This document shows positions 1-6,560 of a DNA stretch of 6,593 bases, in pieces. The DNA is taken from positions 1 through 6,593 of the IMG/VR virus record IMGVR_UViG_2541047119_000019; one strand, written 5' to 3'. This DNA is from a virus. Its lineage: Duplodnaviria; Heunggongvirae; Uroviricota; Caudoviricetes. The stretch's first letter is position 1, and each line of letters opens with the position of its first letter. The notes beneath the pieces are model-generated. The model was not told where the DNA came from. It searched no databases and saw nothing but the letters and a program-made list of their open reading frames with translations. Made by a program: the position numbers and the translations under genes.

Positions 1-299
1 GTTACCTCACAGCTGATACTGAGGGTTTCCGGGTCCTCTGCGAGCGATTCTGGCTGTTCGGCAGCTGCATCGAGAGTCACAGGAAGTAGCTGGGGGCTCT
101 CTGAAGAAGGTAATAGCAGCTTTCCCTCGCGCCATTGTTGTCGCCATTTGAACAACAGATTGGCGTTAATGCCATTTTCAAGAGCAAGTTTTGAGATGGA
201 TATCCCGGGTTCACAGGAGGCAGCAACGAGCTGCTGTTTAAATTCGGGAGGATAATTAGGGCAGCCTTTTCGCCTGCCGGGAGTCACATTTTTCTGCAT
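1..299 (-). CDS. IS-type transposase OrfA/TnpA, helix-turn-helix (HTH_Tnp_1 / PF01527-like), N-terminal ~99 aa; 3' end outside window
   Basis: Manual minus-strand translation from ATG (plus 299-297) gives MQKNVTPGRRKGCPNYPPEFKQQLVAASCEPGISISKLALENGINANLLFKWRQQWREGKLLLPSSESPQLLPVTLDAAAEQPESLAEDPETLSISCEV with no stop to position 1. The PEFK...GxSxxxLAxxxGI...LxxWRxQ pattern is typical of IS3/IS66 OrfA HTH proteins. It is absent from the ORF track because it has no stop inside the window. Confidence 0.7.
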   Translation of the reverse strand, partial: MQKNVTPGRRKGCPNYPPEFKQQLVAASCEPGISISKLALENGINANLLFKWRQQWREGKLLLPSSESPQLLPVTLDAAAEQPESLAEDPETLSISCEV

Positions 300-391
300 A
301 TCTGATACTTTGGTTCCCACTACTTATTTGGTGGGCACCACTTTGTCTAATTCGTCAGATTCTGACCAGACGGTTCAGGCTGTACGCTTAC
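1..391 (-). mobile_element. Terminal part of an insertion sequence (IS66-family-like), partial; body continues beyond window start
   Basis: The minus strand of 385-391 reads GTAAGCG, the motif I recall as the start of IS66-family terminal inverted repeats. It lies 92 bp upstream of the minus-strand transposase start at 299. The other end and any target duplication are outside the window, so the boundary is inferred. Confidence 0.5.
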
Positions 392-411
392 TTTTTAAGG
401 AAGGTAAATAC

Positions 412-972
412 ATGCTGATTGGCTATATACGCGTATCAACAAATGACCAGAACACCGGTTTACAAAGAAATGCGCTGGAATGTGCAGGATGTGAGCAGAT
501 TTTTGAAGACAAAATGAGTGGTAAAACGACACAGCGGCCGGGACTGAAGCGGGCACTGAAGAAACTAAAACCCGGTGACACGCTGATGGTCTGGAAACTG
601 GACAGGCTGGGGCGCAGTATGCGCCACCTTGTTGCGCTGACAGATGAATTACAGCAACAGGGGATAAATTTTCGTAGTCTTACTGACAACATTGATACGT
701 CAACCCCCATGGGGCGCTTCTTTTTTCACATAATGGGTGCGCTGGCAGAAATGGAGCGTGAATTAATTGTCGAACGGACACGGGCTGGTCTTGCAGCTGC
801 CCGTGAAAGGGGACGAACCGGCGGCAGACCCCGCCGTCTCACGCAGGAACAATACGAGCAGGTCGGGCGTTTACTGGCCGGGGGTGTCAGTCGAAGACAG
901 GTGGCACTTATTTTTGATATCGGTCTTTCAACCCTTTATCGTTATTATCCTGCGAGCGTTTCGGAAAAATAA
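412..972 (+). CDS. Serine-recombinase DNA invertase, Gin/Pin/Cin/Hin (Din) family
   Basis: From ATG 412 the product begins MLIGYIRVSTNDQNTGLQRNALECAGCEQIFEDK..., with the catalytic Ser in RVSTNDQ, the WKLDRLGRS and GINFRSLTD...MGRFFFH...ALAEMERELIVERT blocks, and a C-terminal HTH (GVSRRQVALIFDIGLSTLYRY). This is near-colinear with my recollection of Gin/Pin. SD AAGGAAGG at 397-404 sits 7 nt before the ATG. The track start at TTG 310 is rejected. Confidence 0.93.
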   Translation: MLIGYIRVSTNDQNTGLQRNALECAGCEQIFEDKMSGKTTQRPGLKRALKKLKPGDTLMVWKLDRLGRSMRHLVALTDELQQQGINFRSLTDNIDTSTPMGRFFFHIMGALAEMERELIVERTRAGLAAARERGRTGGRPRRLTQEQYEQVGRLLAGGVSRRQVALIFDIGLSTLYRYYPASVSEK

Positions 973-1071
973 GACGCTCTCTTTGTTGGGCCTTTACTGA
1001 ATTAACGCAAAATGGCGTTTATCGGTCTGTGGATATGATAATTCAGTTTATTCAGGAACAGGCTGATTATT

Positions 1072-3111
1072 ATGACGTCCAAATGGGTTCAACTATCATC
1101 AATGCCCGGAAACTTTACTGTTAAAGTTTCCGGTGGTACAGCGGCATTTCTTGAGGCTCCCTTTCCTCCGGCCGAAACAAAAGGAGGAATGACATTTGCT
1201 GACTGTCTCATCAGTTTTAATACACGGGATTGCCTGTGGGTAAGGCCAGTATCCGGTGATCCGAGTGTGGAAATTACCGGAGCGGGTATTGGTGCGGTCA
1301 TTCCGTTAAGTGCTGATGTTGCCGGTACTGCTGAACCGTCAGACTGGGATAATGCTGAAACACATACCCGTCCGTCAGGAAATGAAACTGCTTCCAGCTC
1401 CCCTTCCTGGTATTACGTGGTGGTTCTTGCTGGTCAGTCAAACGGTATGGCTTACGGTGAAGGTCTGCCACTGCCGGAGACATATGACCGCCCCGAACCG
1501 CGTATTATGCAGTTAGCCCGTCGCAGTACAGTCACGCCGGGAGGTAAAGCCTGTCAGTATAACGACATCATTCTGGCCGACCACTGTCTGCATGATGTGC
1601 AGGATATGAGTGGAAAAAATCACCCGAAAGCGGATGTGGCTAAAGGGCAATATGGCACCGTGGGTCAGGGGCTTCACATTGCCAAAAAACTGCTGCCGTT
1701 TATTCCGGCAGATGCGGGGATTCTGCTGGTTCCCTGCTGCCGTGGTGGTTCTGCATTCACGGCGGGTGCTGACGGCACGTACAGTGACAGCACGGGTGCT
1801 TCAGAGGACTCAGCCCGCTGGGGTGTGGATAAGCCGCTGTATAAGGACTTAATCAGCCGGACAAAAGCGGCACTGGCGAAGAACCCGAAAAACCGCCTGC
1901 TTGCTGTGGTGTGGATGCAGGGCGAGTTTGATATTGATGCGAAGCCGACGGAGCATTCTGCGCTGTTTCTGGCGATGGTGGAAAAATTCCGCGCAGACCT
2001 GGCTGAACAGGCGGAACAGTGTACCGGTGGCAGTGCTGCTGGCGTTCCGTGGATTTGTGGCGATACCACGTATTTCTGGAAACAGAAAAATGAACCAGCA
2101 TACCAGGCAATCTATGGCGGCTACAAAAACAAAACAGATAAAAACATTCATTTCGTTCCATTAATGACAGATGAAAATGGCGTGAATGTACCCACCAACA
2201 ATCCGGCAGAAGACCCGGATATTGAATCCATTGGTTATTACGGCTCAACGTGGCGTAACAGTGCCGCTACCTGGACATCTGCGGACCGGGCCAGCCATTT
2301 CAGTGCCTGGGCGCGCCGGGGTATTATTTCTGACCGTCTGGCCACGGCTGTTCTGACTCATGCAGGGCGAACCACAGTAAAAGCCGATGTTCCATCTTCT
2401 GAAACTGAAGCACCAGTGCCGTCACCTTCAGAAACTGAAGCAGTAACCACAACACTGCTGTCTTACCGTGTCAGTGAGTCAGAAGGAAATCTGAAAGCCC
2501 AGGGCTGGGAGCCGGCTGGCGGTAAAGCTGAAATTATCAGTGATGCAGGAGGCACAGGTGGTAAGGCAATGAAACTGACCAAGGAAACAGGTAAATCATC
2601 CTGGTATCTGGATCATGATGCCGGTACTGGTGCTGAACTGCTGAAAAATGGTGGTTTAATCAGTTGTCGTTTTAAAGTACCTGGCGACCTGGTGGCAAAC
2701 CAGTATGTCATGGCGCTTTACTGGCCGGTTTCCTCTCTGCCGCAGGGTGTCACCCTGACAGGGGATGCAGGGAATAATCTGCTGGCATCGTTCTACATCC
2801 AGACAGACGCAAAAGACCTGAATGTGATGTACCACAATGCAAAAGTGGCAACAAATAACCAGAAACTGGGAACCTTTGGTGCATTTGATAATGAATGGCA
2901 TACGCTGGCCTTCCGTTTTGCAGGAAATAACAGCCTTCAGGTTATTCCGGTTATTGATGGTCAGGATGGTGCCGCGTTTACCCTGACGCAGTCACCAGTA
3001 GGAACTTTCCCGGTGGACAAACTCCGCGTAACGGATATCACCAAAAATGCAACTTACCCGGTGCTGATTGACAGCATTGTGGTGGAAGTGAAAAAAGCGG
3101 TAACAGAATAA
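1072..3111 (+). CDS. SASA/SGNH-family carbohydrate esterase (sialate O-acetylesterase-like, resembling prophage NanS-p), with Pro/Ser/Thr/Glu linker and C-terminal putative carbohydrate-binding domain
   Basis: 679-aa ORF. It carries the YYVVVLAGQSNGMAYGEG block (GQSN catalytic-serine motif of sialate O-acetylesterase / DUF303-type SGNH hydrolases), then CRGGS and VVWMQGEFD blocks. A repetitive SSETEAPVPSPSETEA linker separates a ~220-aa C-terminal domain. Start choice (ATG 1072 versus internal ATG 1102) is uncertain. Confidence 0.78.
   Translation: MTSKWVQLSSMPGNFTVKVSGGTAAFLEAPFPPAETKGGMTFADCLISFNTRDCLWVRPVSGDPSVEITGAGIGAVIPLSADVAGTAEPSDWDNAETHTRPSGNETASSSPSWYYVVVLAGQSNGMAYGEGLPLPETYDRPEPRIMQLARRSTVTPGGKACQYNDIILADHCLHDVQDMSGKNHPKADVAKGQYGTVGQGLHIAKKLLPFIPADAGILLVPCCRGGSAFTAGADGTYSDSTGASEDSARWGVDKPLYKDLISRTKAALAKNPKNRLLAVVWMQGEFDIDAKPTEHSALFLAMVEKFRADLAEQAEQCTGGSAAGVPWICGDTTYFWKQKNEPAYQAIYGGYKNKTDKNIHFVPLMTDENGVNVPTNNPAEDPDIESIGYYGSTWRNSAATWTSADRASHFSAWARRGIISDRLATAVLTHAGRTTVKADVPSSETEAPVPSPSETEAVTTTLLSYRVSESEGNLKAQGWEPAGGKAEIISDAGGTGGKAMKLTKETGKSSWYLDHDAGTGAELLKNGGLISCRFKVPGDLVANQYVMALYWPVSSLPQGVTLTGDAGNNLLASFYIQTDAKDLNVMYHNAKVATNNQKLGTFGAFDNEWHTLAFRFAGNNSLQVIPVIDGQDGAAFTLTQSPVGTFPVDKLRVTDITKNATYPVLIDSIVVEVKKAVTE
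2398..2442 (+). repeat. Short in-frame tandem-like direct repeat (TCTGAAACTGAAGCA / TCAGAAACTGAAGCA, 30-bp period) encoding the SETEA linker
   Basis: Two 15-bp copies at 2398-2412 and 2428-2442, 14/15 identical, read directly from the sequence inside the esterase ORF. Confidence 0.85.
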
Positions 3112-3117
3112 AAAAAT

Positions 3118-3144
3118 CCCGCCGGTCATGATATGGCTGGCGGG
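3118..3144. terminator. GC-rich hairpin just after the esterase stop; possible terminator, orientation ambiguous
   Basis: CCCGCCGG (3118-3125), 11-nt loop, CTGGCGGG (3137-3144): 8 bp with one G-U pair. An A6 run precedes it, which would be a U-tract on the minus strand. No U-tract follows on the plus strand. Confidence 0.35.
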
Positions 3145-3257
3145 AGCTACCTAACCCATAAAGGAAAATAAAAATACTCCCGAAGGAGTGGTTATCAGTC
3201 GCTTCGATGTTTTTACCCGATAACGAATTATGTAGTCAATATCAAAGGTAAGGTTAT

Positions 3258-3440
3258 ATGACATTCGTTCATACAATGCTGCTTTATTTCTGCGCTGTGG
3301 TCAGTGCGTTATATCTGGTGAGCGGCGGTTATAAGGTCATCAGAAATTATATTCGCCGTAAAATTGATGATGCGGCAGCTGAAAAACTCAGTAAAACAGC
3401 ACAGGCACCGTCATCCCCAAACGACCCGACCCCGCTCTGA
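3258..3440 (+). CDS. Small hypothetical membrane protein (60 aa, one predicted N-terminal TM helix followed by a basic segment)
   Basis: ATG 3258 is preceded by AAGGTAAGG (3245-3253). The hydrophobic stretch TMLLYFCAVVSALYLVSGGY is followed by KVIRNYIRRK. No family recognised. Confidence 0.55.
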   Translation: MTFVHTMLLYFCAVVSALYLVSGGYKVIRNYIRRKIDDAAAEKLSKTAQAPSSPNDPTPL

Positions 3441-3475
3441 TAACGGGGCAATATACCTGCAAAAGGAGAATATTC

Positions 3476-3721
3476 ATGCCAGAGATTAAAGGCACGGTTA
3501 CTGAAGAGCTTGTCAAACAGGCACTTTATTCTGAAGAAGTGAACCGCGTGCTGAAGGCGCAGGTTCGCAAGGATTTTGAGGCACAAATCGACGCATATGT
3601 TGATGAAGTGCTGGCCCGAATGGTTGGCCGTTCTCCGGCTGAAAACAGCACGGAAAATGATCCTCAACCCGTAGAGCAACCAGAGCCGGTTCAGCCCGGA
3701 ACTGACGGTACTATGATGTAA
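3476..3721 (+). CDS. Small hypothetical acidic protein (81 aa), predicted helical N-terminal half and Pro/Glu-rich tail
   Basis: ATG 3476 is preceded by a strong SD AAGGAG (3463-3468, 7-nt spacing). It lies 35 bp after the previous small ORF, suggesting a two-gene unit. No family recognised. Confidence 0.6.
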   Translation: MPEIKGTVTEELVKQALYSEEVNRVLKAQVRKDFEAQIDAYVDEVLARMVGRSPAENSTENDPQPVEQPEPVQPGTDGTMM

Positions 3722-3730
3722 CAATACCGA

Positions 3731-3750
3731 CCGGCAGGTTTCCCTGCCGG
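3731..3750 (+). terminator. Candidate intrinsic terminator after the small-ORF pair
   Basis: Perfect 8-bp stem CCGGCAGG / CCTGCCGG with 4-nt loop TTTC, followed by the T-rich GTGAGTTTGTTAATG. Confidence 0.5.
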
Positions 3751-4076
3751 GTGAGTTTGTTAATGCACGTTTTGTGTATTTTCCCTCCTGGGAGAACAGG
3801 CAGGACATATCAGCATCCTGAAACAGGAAGCATTTTTGGGTTTGTATGTCTTGCCATTTTGAGATCGAGAACGGCGATAGATGAGCTGTAAGGGAGTCTT
3901 ACAGGCAGGGCAAACAGGCTCTTTCATCCATGATAAAGATCTCCTTTTTATGCATCTCTGCTTTACAGGAGACTGGGGAATATCATAGGATACGCCACGA
4001 GCTCGAAGTAAAGCATTGATGCAAAATTGTCTAAATCGGCCCAGAATAGTTCGCGCTATCTGGGTCGCTCTTTATG

Positions 4077-4112
4077 TATGTAGTATCCCATTGATTTGAA
4101 ACATACTACATA
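4077..4112. promoter_or_regulatory. Perfect 10-bp inverted repeat (TATGTAGTAT-N16-ATACTACATA); candidate operator or structured element
   Basis: Arms at 4077-4086 and 4103-4112 are exact reverse complements, in the AT-rich non-coding region upstream of com-mom. Confidence 0.3.
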
Positions 4113-4147
4113 TACGCGCGATCCTACCTTCACTATATAAAAAGTCA

Positions 4148-4165
4148 ATAAAATGATCATTTTAT
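4148..4165. promoter_or_regulatory. 18-bp perfect palindrome centred on a Dam site (ATAAAATGATCATTTTAT); candidate methylation-sensitive regulator binding site
   Basis: Read directly; a second GATC lies 11 bp away at 4166-4169 and another at 4120-4123. Confidence 0.35.
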
Positions 4166-4272
4166 GATCGTTTTCACCACCTAACTCTTCGTTTTCTTTA
4201 AGTAAATAATCACCTACCTGAATCATTGTTGATGACTTTTCAATCTATTTGTTGTATCAATTAAACAAATCG

Positions 4273-4297
4273 AATCGATCGTTTTTGTCGATCGATT
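4273..4297. promoter_or_regulatory. Inverted repeat AATCGATCG-N7-CGATCGATT with a GATC in each arm, 44 bp upstream of the com start; candidate operator / Dam-sensitive site
   Basis: Arms at 4273-4281 and 4289-4297 are exact reverse complements, with GATC at 4277-4280 and 4290-4293. Confidence 0.35.
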
Positions 4298-4340
4298 GCA
4301 TGAGAAAGGCATCAACAACAAAGCAGGAGGTTATGCGGCC

Positions 4341-4541
4341 ATGTATCGAAACATACGGTGCCGACACTGCAATAAGCTACTGGCACGGGCCAGTTTCAGT
4401 TATCTGGAAGTAAAATGTCCGCGCTGTAAAACCCTCAATCAAATCACATCTCCGAGCGCCACAGAGCACCCCACATACACAAGGAAATCCTGTCGTGGGG
4501 AACAGAAAGCAAGTCACATCCCGAATCATCAGCACGCCTGA
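4341..4541 (+). CDS. com: Com-like zinc-finger translational activator (phage Mu Com homologue)
   Basis: From ATG 4341 (SD AGGAGG 4324-4329) the 66-aa product is [34 protein letters not shown]...EHPT.... The two CxxC pairs and the IRC..CNKLL...CPRCK...EHPT pattern match my recollection of Mu Com. Its 3' end overlaps the next ORF out of frame, as com overlaps mom in Mu. The track start at TTG 4296 is rejected. Confidence 0.82.
4469..4500 (+). promoter_or_regulatory. mRNA stem-loop sequestering the predicted mom SD and GUG start (translation-inhibition-structure-like)
   Basis: CCCCAC (4469-4474) pairs with GTGGGG (4495-4500); the GTG is the predicted mom start. The 20-nt loop contains AAGGA (4481-4485). 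This is analogous to the Mu mom TIS that Com binding relieves. Confidence 0.5.
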
Positions 4542-5232
4542 ACTTATTCGCTATAACGACAATATCGTTGGTTATGGCTCCCGTGAGTTGCGGGTTGAGA
4601 CAATAAGTTGCTGGCTGGCCAGACTGGTCATCGTCAATAAACATTACAGCCACCGTTTCGTAAATAACTCCTACCTTCATCTGGGCATATTTTCAGAACG
4701 GGAACTTGTTGGCGTAATGCAATGGGGTTACGCCCTTAACCCAAACAGTGGTGCACGCGTCGTAACGGGTACGCAGAACCGAGAATATATGGAGCTTAAC
4801 CGGCTATGGCTGCATGACTGTATGCCGAGAAACTCCGAATCAAGGGCAATCAGTTACGCGCTCAAGCTAATCAGGCAGCTTTATCCGCAGGTACAGTGGG
4901 TTCAGTCGTTTGCAGATGAGCGTTGTGGCTGTCTTGGTGTCGTGTATCAGGCAAGCAATTTTGATTATGTAGGCAGCCATGAATCAATATTCTATGAACT
5001 TGATGGCGAGTGGTATCACGAGATTTGCAGGAATGCCATTAAACGAGGCGGACAACGAGGTGAACATCTGAGGGCTAATATTGACAGAGCCAATGTTCAT
5101 AAGTTCCGACAGTTTCGTTACATCCGGTTTCTGAACAAGAGGGCCAAAAAACGCCTCAACACAAAGCTATTCAAAGTCCAGCCTTACCCAAAACCACAAA
5201 CAGTTAAAACTGGTTTGAAAGAGAGTGAATGA
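4495..5232 (+). CDS. mom: Mom-like DNA modification protein (phage Mu Mom homologue; adenine N6-methylcarbamoyl/acetamido modification, anti-restriction)
   Basis: 245-aa ORF immediately downstream of and overlapping the com-like gene (4495-4541) in another frame. GTG 4495 is the first start codon after the frame opens at 4414, with AAGGA 9 nt upstream. Size is close to Mu Mom. The call rests mainly on synteny with the clearly Com-like gene; the Mom sequence was not matched from memory. Confidence 0.75.
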
Positions 5233-5263
5233 GCGCTTAAAAACTCATTCTAAAACTCAAAAG

Positions 5264-5308
5264 AAAAGCGCCGATTTAGTATCAAATAAGTTGCGTATCG
5301 GCGTTTTT
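5264..5308. terminator. A-tract / hairpin / T-tract element after mom; candidate bidirectional terminator or IS-end structure
   Basis: AAAAGCGCCGAT (5264-5275) pairs with ATCGGCGTTTTT (5297-5308), one G-U pair, around a long 21-nt loop. A second 7-bp hairpin GAATGAG/CTCATTC (5227-5250) spans the mom stop. Confidence 0.4.
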
Positions 5309-5411
5309 CAGCAGTATCAAATGAAATGCAAATCGGTATCAAAAAAATCGCCGCGCTATACTACAGGCATTTAAATTCCAGTTAAGACCAGGTGGTCAAC
5401 AGGAGCGTGAA

Positions 5412-6560
5412 ATGAGGCGCTTCGCAGGCGCATGTCGTTTCGTTTTCAATCGTGCTCTGGCGCTTCAGAATGAGAATCATGAGGCCGGTAATAAATACAT
5501 CCCTTACGGGAAAATGGCTTCCTGGCTGGTTGAGTGGAAAAACGCCACTGAAACGCAATGGCTTAAAGATGCCCCGTCACAGCCATTGCAACAGTCACTG
5601 AAAGAGCTTGAGCGGGCTTACAAAAACTTCTTCCGGAAGCGGGCTGCTTTTCCCCGATTCAAAAAGCGGGGACAGAATGATGCATTCCGCTACCCGCAGG
5701 GCGTTAAGCTCGATCAGGAAAACAGCCGTATTTTTCTGCCGAAACTTGGCTGGATGCGCTACCGGAACAGCCGTCAGGTCACGGGTGTTGTGAAAAATGT
5801 CACTGTCAGCCAGTCCTGCGGTAAGTGGTACATCAGTATTCAGACAGAAAGTGAAGTATCAACTCCGGTTCACCCTTCAGCATCAATGGTCGGACTGGAT
5901 GCTGGCGTGGCTAAACTCGCCACGCTGTCAGATGGCACAGTCTTTGGACCTGTAAACAGTTTTCAGAAAAACCAGAAGACGCTGGCGAGACTTCAGCGAC
6001 AGTTAAGCCGCAAGGTCAAATTCAGCAACAACTGGCAGAAGCAGAAACGCAAAATACAGCGACTGCATTCCTGTATCGCAAATATCCGCAGGGACTACCT
6101 TCACAAAGTCACAACGACCGTCAGCAAAAACCACGCAATGATAGTCATTGAGGATTTGAAGGTCAGCAACATGTCAAAGTCAGCAGCGGGTACGGTCAGC
6201 CAGCCGGGGCGCAATGTCCGGGCAAAATCAGGTTTAAACCGTTCGATACTGGATCAGGGCTGGTATGAAATGCGCCGCCAGCTTGAGTACAAGCAGCTCT
6301 GGCGTGGCGGTCAGGTGCTTGCTGTTCCGCCAGCGTACACAAGCCAGCGTTGCGCGTGCTGTGGTCATACAGCGAAAGAAAATCGCCTGTCACAAAGTAA
6401 ATTCAGATGCCAGGCATGTGGATATACAGCGAACGCTGATGTAAATGGCGCTCGTAACATTTTAGCGGCGGGGCACGCCGTTCTTGCCTGTGGGGAGATG
6501 GTGCAGTCAGGCCGCCCGTTGAAGCAGGAACCCACCGAAATGATTCAGGCGACAGCCTGA
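5412..6560 (+). CDS. tnpB: TnpB (OrfB) of an IS200/IS605-family element; RuvC-like RNA-guided endonuclease fold with zinc ribbon
   Basis: 382-aa ORF with SD AGGAG (5401-5405). RuvC-like motifs are present: VGLDAGV (D), IVIEDLKV (E) and [10 protein letters not shown] (D), plus zinc ribbon CACCGH...CQACGY. The in-frame upstream translation (ILQAFKFQLRPGGQQERE, 5358-5411) looks like the conserved TnpB N-terminus but has no ATG/GTG/TTG after the stop at 5322-5324. Confidence 0.9.

Follow-up and report, generated by a model that had tools for sequence, protein, structure and literature searches.

A putative Dam-sensitive OxyR operator in compact layout upstream of com-mom in an Sp18-type Mu-like prophage of Escherichia coli

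Introduction

In phage Mu, mom region I reportedly contains three GATC sites that are bound by OxyR (MomR) when they are unmethylated. The Mu GATCs lie at about -53 to -87 from the transcription start, and the C site and a weak promoter are located between the proximal GATC and the com ATG. E. coli possesses both Dam and OxyR.

Two further operators offer close comparisons. The agn43 (flu) operator of E. coli K-12, which regulates genes unrelated to com-mom, lies at or downstream of the transcription start, with the annotated IsrC/leader RNA beginning at the first GATC. The gtr region of phage P22 carries the GATC pairs ATTGATCGgtaacaaCGATCAAT and ATTGATCGcttgtatCGATCAAA. These pairs are positioned at -110/-97 and -46/-33, with 13 bp between the members of a pair, and each falls within one OxyR half-site (PMC2909390). 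Dam methylation abolishes OxyR binding at gtr, where the half-sites are 32 bp apart and thus spaced for reduced OxyR (PMC2909390); a spacing of approximately 32 bp is canonical for this form of the protein (PMC2909390, PMC4856963).

Sp18 encodes homologues of Mom and of Mom regulators, and com is paired with methyltransferases in other Mu-like phages (PMC3299994). Our literature searches returned no description of mom regulation in Sp18-type prophages, and no methylome, OxyR-binding or expression data specific to the prophage locus. Here, we analyze a stretch of 6,593 nucleotides (the window) that includes com and mom, and describe a conserved 52-bp block upstream of com that is probably an OxyR operator under Dam control.

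Results

The window is the right end of an Sp18-type Mu-like prophage

We identify the window as the right-hand end of a Mu-like prophage of the Sp18 type from E. coli. Apart from a single base, positions 391-5360 agree with a prophage of O157:H7 strain ECP19-798, and the region 3700-4560 is present in 233 of 5,426 complete E. coli genomes. The phage ends at 5359/5360, beyond mom, and is followed by a host insQ/tnpB-type gene. The start of mom overlaps the end of com (4495 versus 4541), and the predicted Mom is 79% identical to that of Mu. With Mu, the prophage shares the com-mom operon, the type of phage and host, and a phage-encoded C homologue. Rfam (E <= 1) returned no RNA family for any part of the window. 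The features discussed below are collected in Table 1.

Table 1. Genes and candidate regulatory features of the window
Feature	Position	Strand	Details
Serine invertase	412-972		
DUF6645/SASA esterase-like protein	1072-3111		
DUF1378	3258-3440		
DUF826	3476-3721		
Frameshifted pseudogene (RefSeq), ORF	3760-4226	minus	
Promoter-like site TTGACT-16-TAGGAT	4121-4148	minus	9/12 matches; number of sites not above shuffles
Distal palindrome ATAAAATGATCATTTTAT	4148-4165		18 bp, perfect, centred on GATC 4155; GATC 4166 and 4120 nearby
Conserved block, putative OxyR tetramer operator	4246-4297		52 bp
Promoter-distal OxyR-type half-site ATTTGTTGTATCAAT	4247-4261		7/10; centre 31 bp upstream of the proximal half-site
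TATC, probable relic of the third (distal) GATC of a Mu-type triplet	4255-4258		By-eye alignment with GATC1 of Edwardsiella locus L012 (GATCgttaaaacaaat) and GATCAAT of other loci
Proximal palindrome AATCGATCG-N7-CGATCGATT	4273-4297		GATC 4277-4280 and 4290-4293, 13 bp apart
Promoter-proximal OxyR-type half-site ATCGTTTTTGTCGAT	4278-4292		7/10 versus ATAGnTnnnAnCTAT; overlapped by both GATCs
Candidate com-mom core promoter	4285-4315	plus	TTGTCG 4285-4290, 19-bp spacer, CATCAA 4310-4315
com Shine-Dalgarno AGGAGG	4325-4330	plus	
com, Zn-ribbon translational activator of mom	4341-4541	plus	Pfam Zn_ribbon_Com E = 1.9e-12; RefSeq annotation
mom, adenine modification enzyme	4495-5232	plus	Pfam Mom E = 2.6e-77

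GATC sites are clustered upstream of com

An earlier sequence-only reading of the window had drawn attention to five clustered GATC sites in what it called the com-mom leader, and to two palindromes there as candidate binding sites for a methylation-sensitive repressor or activator. A recount places the five sites where they had been reported (starts at 4120, 4155, 4166, 4277 and 4290), and counting GATC across the window and the prophage reveals that they are locally enriched. The 178 bp that hold the five sites (30% G+C) would be expected to contain 0.35 to 0.7, whereas the window as a whole has 13 GATCs against 21 to 25 expected. Composition-preserving shuffles of the 178 bp have a mean of 0.45 GATC, with a P(>=5) of 5e-5. 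The Poisson probability for the cluster ranges from 3e-5 to 8e-4, varying with background density, and from 0.001 to 0.03 after correction for the window scan. Nowhere else in the 38.8-kb prophage are GATC sites as densely clustered.

The two palindromes are likewise present as described, the distal one being perfect over its 18 bp with GATC 4155 at its centre, and the proximal one having perfect 9-bp arms that contain GATC 4277 and 4290. The designation as com-mom leader is appropriate for 4227-4340, the 114 bp that make up the only intergenic stretch 5' of com. It does not apply to 4120-4226, which contains three of the GATCs and the 18-bp palindrome and lies within a minus-strand ORF.

A 52-bp block upstream of com is nearly invariant

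Seven E. coli Mu-like prophages were aligned for a phylogenetic footprint, and identities to the window are given for the three most diverged, M18, M1 and CI5. Over 4246-4297, these three match the window at 50 to 52 of 52 positions (96 to 100%). Directly downstream, at 4298-4312, only 8 to 11 of 15 positions are identical, and in the upstream 130 bp, M1 and CI5 match at 20 to 24 of 61 and at 33 of 70 positions. Conservation resumes at 4313-4340, which includes the Shine-Dalgarno sequence (27 to 28 of 28). As the block is near-invariant beside segments that have diverged, its flanks being 33 to 73% identical to the window in these prophages, it is a discrete conserved cis element.

The GATC pair within the block is also found well beyond E. 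coli. Loci retrieved by way of Mom homologues, 146 kb in total, contain ten GATC-N9-GATC pairs, and nine of these immediately precede com or mom. The pair occurs in Mu, Edwardsiella, Symbiopectobacterium, Pantoea, Apirhabdus and further Enterobacteriaceae. A third GATC usually lies 18 to 19 bp upstream of the pair; the window has TATC there.

These data bear on whether the cluster is simply a chance feature of A+T-rich intergenic DNA that has no regulatory function. In favor of chance, the distal sites are not conserved, and when the whole window is simulated by a first-order Markov model, any such cluster has a modest P of 0.03. In contrast, the proximal pair keeps its position and spacing across genera, lies within an invariant block, and matches experimentally defined operators, which makes the chance explanation extremely unlikely.

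The conserved block contains two OxyR-type half-sites at tetramer spacing

The inner 15 bp of the proximal palindrome form the half-site ATCGTTTTTGTCGAT. Half-sites were scored as matches to the generic OxyR half-site consensus ATAGnTnnnAnCTAT over 10 positions, on which scale the validated half-sites of agn43, gtr A and gtr C reach 8/10 and those of Mu and opvAB OBSD 7/10; functional opvAB half-sites score 7 to 8/10 (PMC4856963). Taken alone, a 7/10 match is only weakly unusual in such an A+T-rich region (P = 0.045, with three hits in 4227-4340).

Every offset from the GATC-pair half-site was scanned in 18 regulatory regions, and a sharp peak of consensus matches is seen at -31 (-32 in agn43, gtr C and loci L145 and L025). 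Among the non-redundant com regions, 11 of 12 have a half-site of at least 6/10 at -31/-32, compared to a background of 5.9% (binomial P ~3e-13). In the window, the partner is ATTTGTTGTATCAAT, and the two half-sites together cover 4247-4292, which is as long as an OxyR tetramer site.

On sequence grounds, then, the element looks in every respect examined as would be predicted for a Dam-sensitive OxyR operator of the kind known from Mu mom, agn43 and gtr. Its GATCs form a pair 13 bp apart within one half-site (ATCG-N7-CGAT), a second half-site is found one tetramer spacing away, and by-eye alignment indicates homology to the experimentally defined sites of Mu region I and agn43.

The proximal palindrome resembles the operators of Mu, agn43 and gtr

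In Mu, the counterpart of the proximal palindrome is GATC sites 2 and 3 of mom region I, to which it is orthologous. The Mu sequence, AATCGATCG-N7-AGATCGATT, has the arms and N7 spacing of the window. Aligned more widely, Mu cGATCgaatcaattAAATCGATCGgtaatacAGATCGATTatg and window AATCGATCGtttttgtCGATCGATT have common arms and an equal N7, and the longer regions upstream of com, cGATCgaatcaattAAATCGATCGgtaatacAGATCGATTatgcccc in Mu and ATCAATTAAAcaaatcgAATCGATCGtttttgtCGATCGATTgc in the window, are alike in arms and 7-bp spacer. What the two have in common can be written as AATCGATCG-N7-(A/C)GATCGATT, preceded by ATCAATTAAA and by a partner half-site 31 bp upstream. They differ in that Mu has three GATCs and the window two, the third being TATC in the window, and in the distance from GATC to the com ATG, which is 78 bp in Mu versus 51 bp here.

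In the agn43 operator, tATCGATCGtttatatCGATCGATaag, both 8-bp arms (ATCGATCG and CGATCGAT) are identical to those of the window and the N7 spacing is equal, with TTTATAT and TTTTTGT as the spacers in the agn43/window comparison. Both loci have a third site 19 to 22 bp upstream and a partner half-site at 31 to 32 bp, although agn43 keeps all three GATCs and the window two. P22 gtr, with ATTGATCG-N7-CGATCAAT, has the arm type and spacing of the proximal palindrome. In the OxyR-Dam switches of P22/Salmonella gtr and of opvAB, GATC pairs 13 bp apart fall within one OxyR half-site. At gtr, the -46/-33 pair overlaps the promoter. Like the putative operator of the window, such an element is carried by a phage and serves a modification function. 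However, gtr and opvAB contain three or four half-sites, and OxyR can occupy these in alternative ON and OFF configurations, whereas only two are evident in the window, so that a bistable switch is not implied by the sequence.

With its inverted arms, the proximal palindrome might instead act as an RNA or DNA hairpin, either a minus-strand terminator or part of the com mRNA leader, rather than as a protein operator. A terminator scan does flag the minus strand here (9-bp stem, 7-nt loop and T-rich tail), and the stem folds at -10 to -11 kcal/mol. Yet this folding energy is ordinary compared to shuffled sequences (z = -1.0 and -1.4), no minus-strand gene ends at the palindrome, and what relatives keep is the GATC pair and its spacing, not the complementarity of the arms (6/9 in locus L014). 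We therefore assign the hairpin next to no likelihood and favor a protein operator.

The distal palindrome is most likely not part of the com-mom switch

The sequence-only reading had proposed both palindromes as binding sites for a methylation-sensitive regulator. While homology and architecture support this for the proximal palindrome, the 18-bp palindrome and the three distal GATCs fare differently, as they are not conserved in diverged relatives. Conservation of the distal palindrome and of GATCs 4120, 4155 and 4166 is limited to near-identical prophages. M18, with 72% identity over 4115-4175, keeps GATC 4120 and 4155; it loses 4166, and its version of the palindrome, CAAAATGATCAATTTAT, has two arm mismatches. 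M1 and CI5 are unrelated at the distal site (20 to 24 of 61 identical) and lack GATC there, having a single GATC elsewhere. The distal GATC spacings of 35 and 11 bp and the arms ATAA-N10-TTAT are unlike an OxyR half-site. In addition, the 14-mer core of the palindrome, AAAATGATCATTTT, occurs in at least 120 unrelated contigs in an IMG/VR scan and is uninformative.

The distal palindrome and its GATCs are 110 to 220 bp away from com, in or next to a divergent unit on the minus strand. The ORF of this unit is frameshifted in the window, leaving fragments of 55 and 56 aa, and is intact in O103 RM8385 (154 aa). We do not consider it a reliable gene: homologues are found only in E. coli and differ from one another by frame changes at the C-terminus, Pfam gives no domain, and the homologous DNA of M18 lacks such an ORF. 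GATC 4120 overlaps the 3' end of the -10 hexamer in a promoter-like site on the same strand (Table 1), relative to which the 18-bp palindrome would occupy about -34 to -51. M18 keeps both hexamers (TTGACT-16-TACGAT), with a spacer that is only 9/16 identical. Because the promoter scan gave no excess over shuffles, we treat this site as a lead, not a finding. A Fur box was also considered for the distal palindrome by eye and rejected, as the arm lengths do not fit.

Could the distal palindrome and its three GATCs nevertheless be a second methylation-sensitive operator, acting at a distance on com-mom or on the divergent minus-strand promoter? For a perfect 18-bp palindrome centred on GATC, base composition gives a rough chance expectation of 0.03-0.09 per window, and the placement of GATC 4120 and of the palindrome on the minus-strand site, together with the retention of both hexamers in M18 despite a diverged spacer, would fit such a role. 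Set against this are the degraded palindrome and lost GATC 4166 of M18, the lack of GATC in M1 and CI5, a GATC spacing and arm geometry unfit for an OxyR half-site, promoter-scan sites no more numerous than in shuffled sequence, and a core that is common in unrelated A+T-rich viral DNA. We consider a second operator unlikely. Most likely, neither the distal palindrome nor its three GATCs take part in the com-mom switch; if functional at all, they would belong to the divergent minus-strand promoter region.

The putative operator lies too close to com for a Mu-type promoter

The conserved block ends 44 bp before the com start codon, and its proximal GATC is 51 bp from the com ATG. A site in this position has to overlap either the core promoter or the transcript's 5' end. 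The Mu-like layout implied by the sequence-only reading, in which the operator is 5' of a C-dependent promoter, is not what we find: the GATC-to-ATG distance is shorter than the 78 bp of Mu, no late-promoter box was detected, and the space downstream of the operator is too small for the C box plus promoter of Mu. With the spacing of Mu, transcription would start within com itself. The window would be more agn43-like, with the operator close to or over the transcription start, not far upstream of it.

A survey of 53 distinct com upstream regions from IMG/VR shows two distance classes, with 71 to 78 bp and 50 to 57 bp from the proximal GATC to the com ATG. The long class comprises Mu and loci L145, L156, L014, L015 and L025. 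The short class includes the window as well as com variants only 65 to 75% identical to the window com. Downstream of these variants lies Mom, a C5-cytosine methyltransferase (PF00145) or an N6/N4 methyltransferase (PF01555). The fixed distance between GATC and com suggests that the promoter is interleaved with the operator. The methyltransferase cassettes and locus L140 have a near-consensus -10 (TATACT, TATCAT or TATAGT) 7 to 9 nt after the proximal GATC, which places the GATC pair at about -37 and -24 in those relatives.

The window lineage has TGAGAA at the position of TATACT/TATCAT in these relatives, and its candidate core promoter uses a hexamer further downstream (Table 1). In five E. 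coli variants, the 12 nt of 4298-4309 vary in sequence and are constant in length, and the downstream hexamer is TATCAT, TATCAA or CATCAA. A sigma-70 scan of 3650-4600 gave no plus-strand site in 4227-4340, with the candidate at 4285-4315 falling below threshold, and a total number of sites not above shuffles. With the consensus scan empty on this strand upstream of com, the promoter positions given here come from comparison and geometry. An alternative promoter further upstream, ATGACT (4232-4237)-17-TATCAA (4255-4260), is kept in the E. coli variants; we rejected it, as it is absent from loci L114, L092 and L012. With the promoter placed as in the relatives or as proposed for the window lineage, the operator overlaps the -35 and the spacer. 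A protein bound there would be expected to repress by occlusion, which is how OxyR acts at the gtr BC site.

The proximal palindrome is not a general late-promoter element

It was correctly observed in the sequence-only reading that the window has no C/Mor ORF, and the idea that an activator is supplied from outside it is supported by a C homologue in the same prophage. This Mor/C-family late activator is encoded at 14125-14550 of locus L033, ~27 kb upstream in the prophage and directly before the lysozyme gene, and it is 39% identical to Mu C (E = 8e-33).

The presence of a C homologue raises the question of whether the proximal palindrome binds the late activator (Mor/C family) or another phage protein, with the GATCs being incidental or modulatory. 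Activators of the Mor/C family recognize dyad-symmetric sites that overlap the -35 or lie just upstream of it, and the short leader would put the palindrome at about -25 to -50. Moreover, no separate C box was found upstream of com. The promoters upstream of the lysozyme gene (Plys) and of the head protease gene (PI) share the box TCCGCAAARCCYGCC-N22-TAYGCT, and a search for this box on the plus strand of 3722-4340 gave a best match of <=9/15, which would allow for a diverged box; a C box in common with other late promoters was thus not found at com-mom.

Several points contradict binding by the late activator. Plys and PI have their common box and nothing palindrome-like, and the proximal palindrome occurs once in the 43-kb prophage locus, only upstream of com, which argues that it is not a general late-promoter element. 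Neither agn43 nor gtr has a C protein, yet both carry the 13-bp GATC pair and the partner half-site at 31 to 32 bp. The C site of Mu is the TTATgccccaATAA region, which is downstream of the homologous sequence and does not include it. Together, these observations leave binding by a late activator or other phage protein very unlikely, and OxyR is the favored candidate for the binder.

Discussion

Our analysis suggests that the block at 4246-4297 is probably an operator for OxyR, a host LysR-type regulator that binds as a tetramer, with two half-sites 31 bp apart through which com-mom would be repressed under the control of Dam. The proximal GATC pair is the control element expected for a relative of Mu, here in a compact layout, and the apparent position of the operator resembles that of the agn43 or gtr BC site, unlike that at Mu Pmom. 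We infer that OxyR is the binder, that methylation blocks it, that the promoter is placed as outlined above, and that the effect of binding is repression.

When GATC 4277 and 4290 are unmethylated, OxyR would bind 4246-4297. Because no more than 44 bp separate the end of this site from the com start codon, OxyR bound there would cover the com-mom -35 and spacer, or the first bases of the transcript, and block transcription. Once both GATCs are methylated by Dam, OxyR would be unable to bind and the operon could be transcribed. Synthesis of Mom would then still require Com for translation.

Although the finding in itself is expected for a relative of Mu, it would extend the classic Dam/OxyR control of Mu mom to the Mu-like prophages of the Sp18 type carried by ~4% of complete E. 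coli genomes, many of which are EHEC. It also points to one type of operator-plus-com cassette upstream of three different DNA-modification enzymes, with the operator and com joined to an interchangeable modification gene (Mom, C5-methyltransferase or N6/N4-methyltransferase). Whether mom expression phase-varies is a question that was left open in the gtr study (PMC2909390). As the compact layout resembles the phase-variation switches of agn43 and gtr, this question becomes directly testable at the com-mom locus. A bolder proposal, which we advance tentatively and think improbable, is that in the short-geometry class, with the operator on the core promoter and no C box, the cassette is ON in a heritable minority of lysogens, independent of lytic induction. 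If true, this would be an epigenetically phase-variable, prophage-encoded DNA-modification system, and part of a clonal population, or the phage released from it, would be resistant to foreign restriction systems.

Exchangeable genes around com

To either side of com, gene content differs among the Mu-like prophages. The interval between DUF826 and com (window 3750-4230) is a variable cargo region, seen also in comparison loci L006, L007, L008, L038, and L039, and unrelated small minus-strand genes occupy it in different prophages. Among the prophages of the window's own lineage there is in addition a hypervariable patch at about 4025-4078. Downstream, mom is replaced after the same operator and com by a C5-cytosine or N6/N4 methyltransferase in several loci (L005 4641-5847, L042/L114, L119, L092, and L112), and two of them, L112 and L005, have an upstream region almost identical to that of the window. 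The modification gene 3' of com is interchangeable, with the junction at about window position 4508.

Features of the window and of the DUF826-com slot in related prophages
Location	Feature	Strand	Remarks
Within 1-390	Transposase ORF, incomplete	minus	Continues past window edge; Pfam HTH_Tnp_1, E = 9e-13
3719-3762	G+C-rich hairpin CCGGCAGG-N4-CCTGCCGG, then T-rich tail		Immediately 3' of DUF826
4077-4086 / 4103-4112	Perfect 10-bp inverted repeat TATGTAGTAT / ATACTACATA		16-nt loop
4217-4239 / 4305-4327	23-nt inverted repeat, 78% complementary		Arms either side of conserved operator block
5412-6560	insQ/tnpB-type gene, host flank		Found in most E. coli genomes
M18 (E. coli prophage), slot	175-aa Zn-ribbon protein	minus	
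M1 and CI5 (E. coli prophages), slot	86-100-aa proteins	minus	
Other prophages, slot	66-aa ORF	+	

Transcriptional context of com-mom

The hairpin that follows DUF826 looks like a terminator that would shield com-mom from late transcription upstream; if com-mom is insulated in this way, it would therefore need its own promoter. As for the late promoters themselves, the two clearest ones of the Sp18-type prophage, which lie outside the window (L033 14554-14610 and 22482-22540), have TCCGCAAARCCYGCC-N22-TAYGCT in common, a candidate for the box bound by this prophage's C homologue. It differs from the C box of Mu.

Two further inverted repeats lie in the region around the com upstream sequence. 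Within the longer pair, TTGTTGATG and CATCAACAA form a perfectly matching part, and the alignment with M1 and CI5 reveals no conservation of the left arm in these two prophages.

A palindrome with GATC sites is found at another type of locus. In the IMG/VR loci L060 and L086, ATCGATCG-N7-CGATCGAT and a third GATC sit between two genes, one for an adenine methyltransferase of the Dam family (D12) and the other, divergent, for an LPS glycosyltransferase of family 25. This could be a further OxyR/Dam-type switch, acting over surface glycosylation and the dam homologue.

Ends of the prophage sequence

Identity to the reference prophage last holds at 5359/5360, which marks the right end of the prophage. 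The 5' end of the host insQ/tnpB-type gene beyond it seems to be the insertion site of the Mu-like phage, because the match to the HTH domain of this gene begins only at profile position 20.

At the left, window positions 1-390 are completely different in sequence from the reference prophage, and this stretch terminates at 390 in GTAAGCGTACAGCC (minus strand), which we take to be an IS66-type terminal repeat. Since the divergent stretch holds both the transposase ORF and this repeat, an IS element appears to have inserted 21 bp 5' of the invertase start codon (412), an event that could separate the invertase from its own invertible segment or promoter.
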